NCBI GenBank assembly: GCA_044892525.1
Contig: CM097885.1
Location: 6,326,001-6,390,000 of the forward strand
DNA: 64,000 nt
Direction: 5' to 3'
Origin: Schmidtea polychroa
Taxonomy: Eukaryota
Shown: piece after piece, positions 28,857 to 42,372 of the stretch
Position numbering within the stretch: position 1 is the first letter of the stretch
How the letters are laid out: every line of letters begins with the position of its first letter
Program-made: the position numbers and the translations under genes
Notes under the pieces: generated by a model
Told to the model about the DNA's origin: nothing
Databases searched by the model: none
What the model saw: the letters and a program-made list of their open reading frames with translations, nothing else

Positions 28857-29991
28857 TGTTGGATGACAGAGGAAGAAGAATCGAAGAGTTTGAATTAACA
28901 CATTACTATAGAACGGGCAGCAACAAGTTCAGAATCAATATATACGTGGAGCCCAGATAACTCAAGCCGGACAAATCAAAACAATTATCATTACAATTTG
29001 ACTACTGACTTATGTACATTAGTGATTTATCGGACTATTATTTTATGACAATTATTATTTACGGTGTTTTATATTATTTTATCAATGTATCTTATTTATT
29101 TTATGGAGTTATATGTATTTTATGTTGATATTTCATGTAAATAAAACATAGTATGGGGATTAATTAAATAATTAATATCAGTATAATTACAAAATACATA
29201 ATATTGAAAATAATAAGTGGACATTTTAAATAATTGAAAAACATATGTTGAAAATAATGAAAATAATAAGTGGACATTTTAAATTGAAAAACATATGTTG
29301 AAAATAATGAAAATAATAAGTGGACATTTTAAATAATTGAAAAACATATGTTAGGAGCATGAGTGGTTCTCGAGTCGTGGGAACATAATTTTAACAATAA
29401 TTAACAGCAATAATAATAATTTTAGCAATAATAATAATTTTAATAATAATTAATAGCAATAATAATAATTTTAATTTTTATCACAAATTTTTAGCAATCA
29501 TAAATAATTTTAATATTTTAACAATAATCAATTTTGTAGCAGTTAATTTACACTTTAATAAGCATGTATATAAAAATATATTAATTTCTTAATTATATTT
29601 CTTAAGTACACTTGAAAATTATAACAATTTAATTTCATATACGAAAAAAGTATAAATAGCGAGTCAAAATTCATTTTTTTCGCCCCAAAATTTTAACCGC
29701 GTTAACATACTAAAAAGGTTAATCCTTATTAGTGCTAAAACTCGAACAGACAAACAGAAACGTTCAAAAGCCTACACGCAACACAGCAAGAGAATACATA
29801 ACATTCACACAATACACACAAGCATATTCGATTGGATATTTAAAGGATTTTTGGATTTTTGTAGCAAACAAATTCATATTGGTAAATTTTTATTTATAAT
29901 AAAAGTTTTATAACTCACTTCGTCTTTTGATATATTTGTACATATATAAGAACCAGTAAGTTGAGTGTTCCCGAATATCGAGACCTCAACA
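28857..29991 (+). repeat. 5' LTR
   Basis: Direct repeat of 41238-42372. It contains three ~45-50-bp tandem units (about 29205-29352), a TATAAATA box at 29651 and AATAAA at 29898. Confidence 0.97.
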
Positions 29992-29993
29992 TT

Positions 29994-30011
29994 TGGTGCC
30001 GCGAACCGGGA
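29994..30011 (+). promoter_or_regulatory. Primer-binding site, tRNA-Phe-like (tentative)
   Basis: TGGTGCCGCGAACCGGGA lies 2 nt after the LTR. It is complementary to a tRNA 3' end ...TCCCGGTTCGCGGCACCA and similar to known Phe-type PBSs. Confidence 0.8.
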
Positions 30012-30198
30012 CTTTAAAATCAATTATTGTTATTCACAATTTGGGGGATAGGAATTGAGATCAGAGGGTATAGTATTTTATATTGGGAAAATATATTTAT
30101 AAAAAACAATATCATTGACCAATTTTTAAATAAATAAATTCAGTTTTGAAAATTATTAAATAATTCGAAAAGATAAAATAGATAATCAACCCGAAATA

Positions 30199-39315: not shown

Positions 39316-39460
39316 AAATAATATAGATAATTTCAATTCCTATTGGTCAATGATAATATTTAAACTCACATATATTTATATTTTTATTTATATTGAAGCG
39401 TATAAGGTAAAGCCTCAAATGCGCTGTAAATATGTATGTTTATATTGTTTTTTTAGAAAA

Positions 39461-41341
39461 ATGCAATCCAACAATACCAGAGTCAATTCCAAACCATTCA
39501 ATCCCATACAACGTCCAGTCCAACAATACAGCTGCTCCATTCAAAAACTATACCACAGTTTCTACAAAAATTTGCAAAATAAAATCACCTCAGACGGCTC
39601 ACCAATCACCATCAGAAGTTTCCCTAACCAGGTCTGCATACCCAATGAAATGAAGTGCGAAATCGAAGAAAGAGAAATGCACTTAGTTAAATTTAATGAA
39701 GCCCGAAGGATAAAGCTGAGAGATATAATAGGCACCTATGATATGTTCAAAAATGCAGATATCGCAGCAAATGAAGGAAGAAAAGTCCCACATAGAATAC
39801 TATTCCATATGACCAGAACGGAGGTCTCAATTTGCCAACAACGAATCCCTATTATAACAACAAGCAACTGCACGGTGGTGATCAAGACGATGAAAACAAA
39901 TCGAAGCGTGCCAAACGATTTCAACAATTTGGTCATCCAAATGAACAATTTACCCTGTGTAATGGCTATCGAAATTCTATATGTCCCAACCATACCCAAC
40001 CCTTTCAGAGAATTAGAGATGATACAGTCGGAAATCGTGATACACCAGGATTTCATCTCGAAACGGATGTCATTCACACATCAACAGTTGTCAATCCCCG
40101 AACGACAAAGGGCAATCATGTTCGTCGATGTCAAAGAAGTATGCGACATCAATAACAATCTCAGACCAGTAGAGATATGCATCAGAAATTTTAGAGGAGA
40201 AATCGTATACAATAAAAAGGTGACTCCACGCACCAAAGTCCAACATTATTACCCGGAGAAGACAAGAGCAGACAGAGATTCGATAAGAGGAAACGAAGAC
40301 GAATACCAAGCGCTGATCGACATACAGAAGCTGCTACTCGGAAAAATCATTGTGGGATACGAAATAATAAAGAAACTTAAGACGCTGACATTAGATCTGT
40401 ACAATGTCATGGGAGTCAGAGAGTTAGCTGAAGATGTGTTCATGTGTTCATTCGTCAAAAATGTAGCACCACACAGAATCAAATTATCGAATCTCGCATA
40501 CAAAGTGATCGCAACACACCCAAAATGAAAGAAAGACAAAGCAATCAACAACATCCTCAAAAAACCCGAACCGTTCTCAGCAGAAGATACAACACTAATC
40601 GCAAAAGTCATTTACCTCTTGATCGAAAAGCAATGGGAAGAAGTCATAAGGTGGGACATGACAGCATTCCAAAAGGAAAATAATGGCCATCAACTCAGTC
40701 CAATAGAAGAAAACAGCGATGAGCCAGAAGAATTTGAGGAAGATATATATATCGAACCTTCACAAAGAGAATTGAAATTCAATAAAGATGGGAGCAGACG
40801 TACCTTTGAAGATGAACTAATGGACAGCGATGATGACATCATATTCGTCAAAGAGGACAAAAAACCACAAGCAATCACAATAAAGGAAGAACCTCAAACA
40901 TCAAGAAGTTACAACTATGCTGACCCACAATGTGATTTAGACTCGGATGAAGAATATTTCTCACCTGGCGAAGCAATGCAGATAGATGACGAACTAGGAC
41001 CAGAGCCAAATGTCGAGTTGGAGGAGCCAATGTTCATCATCAAAGAGGGAAGATCCACTATCTCGGAAAAAGAAATACATCAACACTTCGGCAGACGAAT
41101 TATTGATGGTGACGTGTTAAAATTGGCATTGAAGAAAGGATTCCAAAGAGCAACAATGTATATAAACGGTTGTGAAATCGAATTGGTCCTTAGCGATAAA
41201 GGTAATGAGGACATTACTTTATCGGCCCTAGGAGGAGTGTTGGATGACAGAGGAAGAAGAATCGAAGAGTTTGAATTAACACATTACTATAGAACGGGCA
41301 GCAACAAGTTCAGAATCAATATATACGTGGAGCCCAGATAA
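39461..41341 (+). CDS. Accessory ORF2 (~626 codons) containing a DEDDh/REX4-like exonuclease fold, interrupted by one in-frame TGA at 40526-40528
   Basis: ORFs 39185-40528 and 40619-41341 are in the same frame and separated only by a single TGA. The likely start ATG at 39461 follows a polypyrimidine/AG acceptor-like site. Confidence 0.7.
41230..41237 (+). promoter_or_regulatory. Polypurine tract
   Basis: AGGAGGAG immediately precedes the TG of the 3' LTR. Confidence 0.75.
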
Positions 41342-42372
41342 CTCAAGCCGGACAAATCAAAACAATTATCATTACAATTTGACTACTGACTTATGTACAT
41401 TAGTGATTTATCGGACTATTATTTTATGACAATTATTATTTACGGTGTTTTATATTATTTTATCAATGTATCTTATTTATTTTATGGAGTTATATGTATT
41501 TTATGTTGATATTTCATGTAAATAAAACATAGTATGGGGATTAATTAAATAATTAATATCAGTATAATTACAAAATACATAATATTGAAAATAATAAGTG
41601 GACATTTTAAATAATTGAAAAACATATGTTGAAAATAATGAAAATAATAAGTGGACATTTTAAATTGAAAAACATATGTTGAAAATAATGAAAATAATAA
41701 GTGGACATTTTAAATAATTGAAAAACATATGTTAGGAGCATGAGTGGTTCTCGAGTCGTGGGAACATAATTTTAACAATAATTAACAGCAATAATAATAA
41801 TTTTAGCAATAATAATAATTTTAATAATAATTAATAGCAATAATAATAATTTTAATTTTTATCACAAATTTTTAGCAATCATAAATAATTTTAATATTTT
41901 AACAATAATCAATTTTGTAGCAGTTATTTAACACTTTAATAAGCATGTATATAAAAATATATTAATTTCTTAATTATATTTCTTAAGTACACTTGAAAAT
42001 TATAACAATTTAATTTCATATACGAAAAAAGTATAAATAGCGAGTCAAAATTCATTTTTTTCGCCCCAAAATTTTAACCGCGTTAACATACTAAAAAGGT
42101 TAATCCTTATTAGTGCTAAAACTCGAACAGACAAACAGAAACGTTCAAAAGCCTACACGCAACACAGCAAGAGAATACATAACATTCACACAATACACAC
42201 AAGCATATTCGATTGGATATTTAAAGGATTTTTGGATTTTTGTAGCAAACAAATTCATATTGGTAAATTTTTATTTATAATAAAAGTTTTATAACTCACT
42301 TCGTCTTTTGATATATTTGTACATATATAAGAACCAGTAAGTTGAGTGTTCCCGAATATCGAGACCTCAACA
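41238..42372 (+). repeat. 3' LTR
   Basis: Same length as the 5' LTR and virtually identical to it; followed by the ATAT TSD. Confidence 0.97.

Follow-up and report, generated by a model that had tools for sequence, protein, structure and literature searches.

Can one uninterrupted reading frame of a long terminal repeat (LTR) retroelement carry Gag, an envelope glycoprotein (Env), Pol and a second surface protein, and what could such a polyprotein be for? The question is raised by an element of 13,516 bp located at positions 28857-42372 of a 64,000-nucleotide stretch of Schmidtea polychroa DNA (assembly GCA_044892525.1, contig CM097885.1, positions 6,326,001 to 6,390,000 of the forward strand; hereafter the window), which contains no N at any position. 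The element is best explained as a recently active, compact Ty3/Gypsy member of the planarian Burro/GAG-ENV-POL clade, whose four-crossing polyprotein would yield a fusogen together with an attachment or contact-targeting protein, a reading in which we place moderate confidence.

Two predicted membrane proteins flank Pol in one reading frame

The first-pass annotation had proposed an uninterrupted open reading frame (ORF) of about 3,030 codons, in which Gag, a unit of signal, ectodomain and transmembrane (TM) segment, Pol, and a second unit of signal, ectodomain, TM segment and tail follow one another. ORF1, of 3,027 amino acids, has this composition. Its order is Gag, a SUMO-like domain, a Bcl-2-like domain, a signal sequence, a chuvirus/gB-type fusogen, a TM segment, protease, reverse transcriptase, RNase H and integrase (PR-RT-RH-IN), a second signal sequence, an FN3-like domain, a stalk, a TM segment and a tail. 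The Pfam matches run from zf-CCHC (aa 328-343) through Bcl-2-like (768-835) and Monjiviricetes_fusion (888-1538) to RVP, RVT_1, RNase H and integrase. The PR-RT-RH-IN order with a GPY/F-type integrase is that of Ty3/Gypsy elements.

Gag is 25-31% identical to the gag of relatives, one of which matches Retrotrans_gag. The SUMO-like and Bcl-2-like domains ahead of Env are weak matches below the Pfam cut-off; they stand in the order described for Burro and in the same order in a second family (family 2, below), where the SUMO-like region is 32% identical and a ubiquitin match exists. Comparison of the envelope with the sequences of solved structures gave no real match. The insert between PR and RT is 31% identical to that of a Burro-type copy and has no Pfam match. 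The sequence itself shows that Gag, a gB-type fusogen, Pol and a second type I membrane protein share a single ORF, an arrangement retained across the clade.

The four proposed membrane segments (around aa 885, 1451, 2753 and 2974) are the four top-ranked hydrophobic 13-mers of ORF1 by hydrophobicity scale, and the same four rank highest in six of six relatives with the second module. Signal 1 keeps its n-h-c shape in 19 of 19 relatives. In 18 of these 19, A, G or S stands four residues ahead of the Y/F-D-C motif of Env, at the predicted -1 position, which leads to the cut predicted after A905. Within the second ectodomains of 12 of the 22 proteins that carry one, 28% of Asn residues lie in N-glycosylation sequons, versus 12% in Pol; these 12 ectodomains hold 70 sequons versus 37.2 +/- 5.3 in local shuffles, none of the 2,000 shuffles reaching 70. 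Such an excess is as expected of a lumenal glycoprotein. Together with the conservation across the clade, these features make the four-crossing topology, which the first-pass annotation had already put forward, very probable.

The last 277 residues of ORF1 match no Pfam family, fn3 included. In the AlphaFold model built on a five-copy alignment, a seven-stranded domain is predicted with a local confidence (pLDDT) of 63-80, the mean being 54 overall. Most of the top 50 VIA structural neighbours of this domain are FN3 domains; the best has Z 7.6 and a root-mean-square deviation of 2.9 over 81 aligned residues, which is middling by the grading of the tool. ESM Atlas gives fn3 at 0.89, and the best Foldseek match has E 2e-3, none lying at E 0.001 or better. 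The earlier naming of an FN3 protein is therefore moderately supported by the predicted fold and lacks a Pfam fn3 or a strong Foldseek match. The second ectodomain is likely, but not proven, to be FN3-like.

At the C-terminus, a class I PDZ-binding motif (S/T-x-V/L/I, as defined in PMC4810129) is found in 12 of the 22 second proteins, with a chance expectation of about 0.025. None of 101 other Pol-bearing proteins, many of which are partial models, ends in such a motif. The cytoplasmic tails themselves vary, only one of 55 pairs aligning among the 11 tails compared.

Upstream of the ORF1 start, the frame is open for a further 24 codons (window 30160-30231), which encode a Y-N-L-R motif, and a non-AUG start of ORF1 there is possible. 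The same motif lies ahead of Gag in family 2, and a Y-x-L-R-[S/P/N] motif is found 3' of the integrase in most clade members. We take these motifs to be reminiscent of the chromatin-binding motif of foamy-virus Gag. An AT-hook-like stretch, RGRGRPRK (window 32263-32286), lies between the SUMO-like and Bcl-2-like domains, and P0003, a relative, has a similar one.

Distribution, copies and exchange of the second module

Relatives were found by database searches that used env and Pol as queries. A word-index search with the second module among proteins of 1,664-5,298 aa retrieved none of 1,438 candidates, because the module diverges too fast. A tree of RT-RH-IN with 40 rows was built by a quick method, using arthropod, fish, plant, algal and fungal Gypsy elements as outgroups and no named GyDB references. 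Twenty-five of the rows form a clade with a branch support (SH-aLRT) of 99. The comparison with Burro that the first-pass annotation had suggested places the window element and a Burro-type copy together in a clade of 22 rows (SH-aLRT 96), their RT-RH identity being 50%. Leaving out P0023, which ends inside the integrase, a signal and ectodomain follow the integrase in 22 of the 24 clade members in which it is complete, and 19 of these 22 have a TM segment and tail (weak TM in P0002). The search for the same architecture in relatives, also suggested before, has thus returned the second module throughout most of the clade. Five env-less neighbours have just 45-59 residues after the integrase.

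The second ectodomain is variable. In the clade it consists of one or more FN3-like units, recognized by motif and layout; in P0230 it is an Ig domain (Ig_3, E 4e-8), and in P0217 and P0218 a cysteine-rich domain. Motif and layout are the sole grounds on which homology of the repeats between distant families is suggested. The shape of a stalk plus a head is kept throughout.

Two further families of the same genome illustrate this range. Family 2 (L061-L064) has an ORF of 3,334 codons and at least 150 genome matches; its env is 38% and its RT 53% identical to those of the window element. Its second module contains about three ectodomain units and a tail that ends in a PPxY-like motif and a PDZ-type end, and no long accessory ORF was found in its 3' region. 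A Burro-type giant of about 34 kb (L073-L076, G000:C1:123516000-123555999), with 4.3-kb LTRs that are 99.98% identical, contains a 4,791-codon ORF1 with MATH and ankyrin domains and a second membrane protein with a PDZ-type end. Five ORFs follow downstream; one encodes a BIR-RING protein, and another, of 341 aa, opens with a signal-like stretch.

Several relatives show other peculiarities. Extra protease-like domains, several of them with D-S-G or D-T-G, lie after the integrase or ahead of the main protease in P0001, P0002, P0004, P0005, P0007, P0202, P0205, P0209 and P0218. In P0260, a Gypsy polyprotein outside the clade, a precomputed PF00974 match marks a rhabdovirus-type glycoprotein, and signal/TM segments follow the integrase. 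The clade polyprotein P0008 is filed under a metagenome-assembled genome of Flavobacteriaceae and is probably host contamination.

The genome (781 Mb, four large contigs) was searched with the last 277 residues of ORF1, and 140 of 432 candidates were scored. At least 143 matches were found, in groups of about 97-100%, 75-78% and 52-59% identity, and at least 12 of them lie in open frames of 2,994 codons or more. Two of the 12 open-frame copies belong to a duplicate of the window locus, and one resembles a second assembly of another. Of nine other copies inspected, six yielded clean pairs of LTRs that are 97.9-100% identical; the remaining three are a tandem, a partial copy and one from which no pair was obtained. 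The genome hence holds several near-identical intact copies, as the GAG-ENV-POL errantiviruses do, and the element has been recently active.

The duplicate lies about 60.5 kb downstream, where the same insertion with the same flanks occurs as two tandem units that have the middle LTR in common. The duplicated block (G000:C1:6413000-6446399; L060, L021-L023) is at least 21 kb long and 99.9% identical to window positions 26473-47591. It represents a segmental duplication or else an assembly that was not collapsed. With the locus in such a block, the extra modules might be explained by a one-off chimera, an assembly artefact or a captured host exon. The first-pass annotation had pointed to other copies as the check on this, and they keep the inserts in frame. 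The module is also in frame with the integrase in several subfamilies and in distant families (50-55% Pol identity). The number of genome matches, the Burro-type copy and the clade-wide occurrence refute a chimera or artefact, the probability of which we consider negligible.

The second membrane protein is under purifying selection, as judged from coding sequence. Between the window copy and seven other open-frame copies, env shows a synonymous divergence (dS) of 0.07-0.26 and a nonsynonymous divergence (dN) of 0.005-0.009, giving dN/dS of 0.03-0.08. Between subfamilies, dN/dS is about 0.11-0.18 for signal 2 and the FN3-like domain. It is 0.47-0.58 for the stalk and about 0.2 for the TM segment and tail.

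Four of these seven copies (L027-L030) are 94-100% identical to the window element over the backbone from Gag to integrase, but from the start of the second module dS rises to 0.3-0.6. The two halves of their accessory ORF are 69% and 53% identical to those of the window copy, and their 3' DNA about 67%. This abrupt change means that a 3' block, composed of the second surface protein, the accessory gene and U3, has been exchanged by recombination.

Proposed mechanism and alternatives

We propose that signal 1 would send Env into the lumen of the endoplasmic reticulum (ER), while Gag would stay tethered to the membrane. The Env anchor would bring the chain back to the cytosol, where Pol would be made, held by the Env tail on one side and signal 2 on the other, before the element's protease frees it. 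Signal 2 would then send the FN3-like ectodomain into the lumen, and the second TM segment would leave the PDZ-binding tail in the cytosol. Two cuts would be made by signal peptidase and the remainder by the element's protease. As all products would be cut from one polyprotein, every part would start on one membrane and in equal amounts. Among the roles considered, the second protein is most likely a glycosylated surface attachment or adhesion protein, placed at cell contacts through PDZ scaffolds and partnering the fusogen in cell-to-cell spread; we hold this role only tentatively, at a little short of even confidence.

The same protein may instead manipulate the host from the surface of the expressing cell, as a receptor decoy, a superinfection blocker or a modulator of junctions or signalling. 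It would then belong with the Bcl-2-, SUMO-, MATH-, BIR- and ISG20-like cargo and not with entry. Anti-apoptotic and ubiquitin-pathway cargo is indeed plentiful in the clade, FN3 and Ig folds typically occur in cell-surface receptors, and class III fusogens of the rhabdovirus type work without a partner. Viral PDZ motifs, moreover, often target polarity or survival pathways (PMC4810129). However, the second protein is made 1:1 with Env in a structural polyprotein, whereas the BIR and exonuclease-like cargo is encoded in separate ORFs, and its stalk-plus-head shape does not change across the clade. We consider host manipulation rather unlikely.

Alternatively, the element may no longer leave the cell: Env and the second protein would collect Gag, Pol and RNA at internal membranes, with budding into the ER or endosomes, and the element would spread by ordinary retrotransposition. 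Copy numbers and LTR evidence fit intracellular transposition equally well, the signals would tether Gag and integrase whatever the ectodomains do, and the second module is missing from some relatives. On the other hand, the whole fusogen ectodomain is under purifying selection, and the retained sequon excess and PDZ motifs suggest a place at the cell surface. Template switching would account for the recombinant 3' blocks, but needs no infection. A purely intracellular life appears unlikely to us.

Several observations weigh against a fusogen with a partner protein for attachment or contact targeting. The envelope ectodomain of the window copy holds no N-glycosylation sequon, and a Gag:Pol ratio of 1:1 is unusual for particle assembly. 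TM segment and tail are not clear in P0021, P0230 and P0252, in addition to the weak TM segment of P0002. The second module is missing from P0007 and P0225 in the clade and from P0265 just outside it. Env and Pol are separate proteins in three record pairs whose contigs are of equal length, P0012/P0207, P0003/P0208 and P0009/P0209, which suggests that the single ORF may not be universal in the clade. The clade sequences are related by descent, and the signal, sequon and PDZ counts show conservation and not independent trials. A strict class I motif is absent from ten of the 22 second proteins and present in 10 of 104 stand-alone glycoproteins. The support for an FN3 fold is moderate (Z below 8, Foldseek E 2e-3, mean pLDDT 54 on five sequences), and positive selection on the second ectodomain was not seen, even in the stalk at its dN/dS of 0.47-0.58.

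Extended to the whole Burro clade, the two-glycoprotein reading would describe enveloped retroviruses in which a class III fusogen is paired with a distinct attachment protein (exchangeable head, PDZ-anchored tail), both cut by signal peptidase from a four-crossing polyprotein and spreading the element from cell to cell. We regard this extension as speculative and rather improbable. If true, it would mean a division of labour like that of herpesviruses or paramyxoviruses within a retroelement, would bear on the origin of retroviruses from retrotransposons, and would imply cell-to-cell spread in an animal that relies on adult pluripotent stem cells for its maintenance.

The conserved second surface protein, with its variable head and PDZ-type tail, provides a concrete and testable handle on how elements with Env inside the polyprotein are processed and whether they exit cells. 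Its presence in the Burro-type copy also changes the annotation of the best-known planarian retroelements. RNA interference against smedwi-2 strongly de-represses Burro RNA (PMC8532177), so products and particles can be sought in an existing model.

Element ends, accessory gene and comparison with known systems

The features of the element are collected in Table 1. TG..CA LTRs, a short target-site duplication, a tRNA primer-binding site and a polypurine tract are all present, as in Ty3/Gypsy elements (Metaviridae). The two LTRs differ at two positions (29546 and 29549) over 1,135 bp, and the ATAT duplication flanks both ends. The earlier description of the element as young agrees with these ends, and its description as intact applies to ORF1 only, as the accessory ORF of the window copy contains an in-frame stop (40526-40528).

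Table 1 Features of the element in the window.
Feature	Position	Strand	Remarks
Target-site duplication, left	28853..28856		ATAT, 4 bp
5' LTR	28857..29991	+	1,135 bp, TG..CA; internal 50-bp and 18/31-bp repeats
Primer-binding site	29994..30011	+	15 nt equal to a host tRNA gene's 3' end, then CCA
ORF1	30232..39315	+	3,027 aa; free of stops and frameshifts
Gag	30232..31281	+	capsid-like region, Arg/Asn-rich region, single CCHC knuckle aa 330-343
SUMO/ubiquitin-like domain, weak	31900..32019	+	PF11976, E 0.037
Bcl-2-like domain	32533..32736	+	PF00452, E 7.6e-6 on fragment; under Pfam cut-off
Internal signal sequence 1	32875..32946	+	aa ~882-905; predicted signal-peptidase cut after A905
Envelope ectodomain, chuvirus/gB-type	32947..34563	+	PF24664 (Monjiviricetes_fusion), E 8e-90; class III by family assignment
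Envelope transmembrane anchor	34564..34650	+	aa ~1445-1473
Aspartic protease	35005..35298	+	DTGA
PR-RT insert	35329..35721	+	at the place of the dUTPase-like domain of Burro
Reverse transcriptase	36007..36480	+	YMDD
RNase H	36730..37116	+
Integrase	37372..38436	+	HHCC, core, GPY module
Internal signal sequence 2	38482..38535	+	aa ~2751-2768
FN3-like beta-sandwich (likely), seven strands	38563..38838	+	L-x-P-x-T-x-Y motif
Ser/Thr-rich then basic stalk	38839..39123	+	fastest-changing part
Transmembrane anchor 2	39124..39201	+
Basic cytoplasmic tail	39202..39312	+	C-terminus S-L-V, class I PDZ-binding-like
Splice-acceptor-like pyrimidine tract and AG	39438..39456	+	just 5' of accessory ATG 39461
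Accessory ORF	39461..41341	+	conserved frame of 626 codons, in-frame stop 40526-40528 in this copy; N-terminal domain, ISG20-like DEDDh domain, acidic region; overlaps U3
Short polypurine tract	41230..41237	+
3' LTR	41238..42372	+	1,135 bp, TG..CA
Target-site duplication, right	42373..42376		ATAT

The host tRNA gene that matches the primer-binding site is called Ser(GGA) by ARAGORN, but it looks like a tRNA-Phe whose anticodon loop contains one additional base. A tRNA gene matching this site (L080:189-267, minus strand) carries surplus bases in both its anticodon loop and its T loop and is possibly a pseudogene or affected by a sequence error.

The first-pass annotation was right that an accessory gene exists. 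A 426-aa ORF2 from ATG 39248, with a separate ORF3, was rejected, as the frame that is conserved begins at 39461 and stays open over 626 codons in L043, L045 and both tandem copies, four copies other than that of the window. Elsewhere along its length it is interrupted in L041, L053, L055, L057 and others. An acceptor-like tract similar to that in front of the window ORF is found in three subfamilies, the window's included. A profile of four subfamilies matches ISG20L2 (E 0.001) and ISG20 (E 0.01), as expected of the ISG20/REX4-type family, and ESM Atlas gives RNase_T at 0.90; the single-sequence fold has a pLDDT of 32. The exonuclease-like domain lacks a complete D-E-D-H-D set: the first Asp is invariant, the second position is Lys in four of four, and the third and His positions are changed. 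A spliced RNA is the probable source of the accessory protein, which would act as a nuclease-dead regulator that binds RNA. Sequencing runs yielded nothing usable on expression: no splice joint was seen in the runs guessed to be RNA, and run X1 (RNA by guess) covers 29 of 30 bins, results that were counted neither for nor against. The depth of run X3 is lower over the accessory ORF, which fits variants of the 3' block and is not a copy number.

Around the element, the window contains myosin tail exons of a host gene (7854-8555 and 10052-10543, plus strand) with a GIY-YIG fragment between them (9021-9533, minus strand). On the minus strand are also a 409-codon frame without Pfam match (22807-24036), an RT fragment (47100-47750) and a MATH-domain frame (52072-52584).

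The first-pass annotation did not recognise the layout from a named family, which is largely mistaken. Comparable layouts are published for Burro (PMC6431247), for GAG-ENV-POL errantiviruses (PMC13524379) and for the Atlas polyprotein (PMC9094657). The core layout, with Env inside the polyprotein, is hence already described, and by sequence the window element is closely related to a catalogued one. In nematodes, bryozoans and flatworms, Chary and Hayashi (eLife 2026, PMC13524379) report elements of the GAG-ENV-POL kind whose env is gB-type; S. mediterranea has six of these. Like Smed_errantivirus_3 (Platyhelminthes_Rhabditophora), the window element is a multicopy Ty3/Gypsy element with the order Gag-Env-Pol and a gB/chuvirus-type env. 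Residues 939-1184 of ORF1 are identical to the env of Smed_errantivirus_3 at 207 of 246 ungapped positions (about 84%, counted by eye). Family 2 and the Burro-type copy resemble S. mediterranea errantivirus_2 and _6, likewise by eye.

The second, post-integrase membrane protein is apparently new to description. The parts of the text and supplement of PMC13524379 covered, which exclude its figures and GitHub files, contain no single-ORF topology, post-integrase membrane protein or accessory ORF, and the Burro section of PMC6431247 does not mention a second membrane protein. PMC13238120 and PMC11410931 contribute nothing on structure. In the literature search, which did not cover Grohme 2018, Repbase GYPSM1, the eLife GitHub files and paper figures, neither the second protein nor its PDZ motif nor the four-crossing model was found to be described. 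Nor did the search find a retroelement that divides attachment and fusion between two unrelated proteins flanking Pol, with the attachment block swapped by recombination.

Atlas virus, a nematode member of Belpaoviridae, encodes Gag, Pol and envelope glycoproteins in one unbroken polyprotein (PMC9094657), and in this respect it is similar to the window element. However, Atlas is a BEL/Pao element with the order Gag-Pol-Env and phlebovirus GN/GC of class II side by side at the end, whereas in the window element two unrelated surface proteins flank Pol. The accessory gene recalls Juno and Vesta of bdelloid rotifers, whose 3' ORF3 contains a DEDDy exonuclease domain and is typically expressed from spliced RNA (PMC5408684). 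Both have a DEDD-family domain in a 3' ORF, and nuclease-family cargo in LTR elements is thus not unprecedented. The rotifer domain is DEDDy/RNase D-like with its catalytic residues kept, whereas that of the window element is ISG20-like DEDDh with most of them changed. Env of HTLV-1 binds DLG1 through a class I PDZ motif at virological synapses (PMC4810129); there the motif is on the fusogen itself, whereas here it is on a separate protein, and the likeness is one of analogy only.

Burro provides the closest comparison. Its ORF1 encodes Gag with CCHC knuckles, MATH, SUMO-like and BCL2-like domains, an env with matches to mononegavirus fusion glycoproteins, PR, a dUTPase-like domain and RT-RH-IN (PMC6431247). 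The same source, citing Jurka 2007 and Grohme 2018, gives Burro/GYPSM1 as longer than 30 kb, with an ORF1 of about 4,900-5,100 aa and two or three CCHC knuckles. The window element likewise has one ORF with Gag-CCHC, SUMO-like and BCL2-like domains, a mononegavirus-type env in frame between the BCL2-like domain and PR, an insert and RT-RH-IN. Unlike Burro, it measures 13.5 kb against more than 30 kb and 3,027 aa against about 4,800, has one CCHC knuckle, lacks MATH, ankyrin and BIR domains, and carries the ISG20-like accessory ORF instead. By its sequence, the window element is a compact sister lineage of Burro and not Burro proper.

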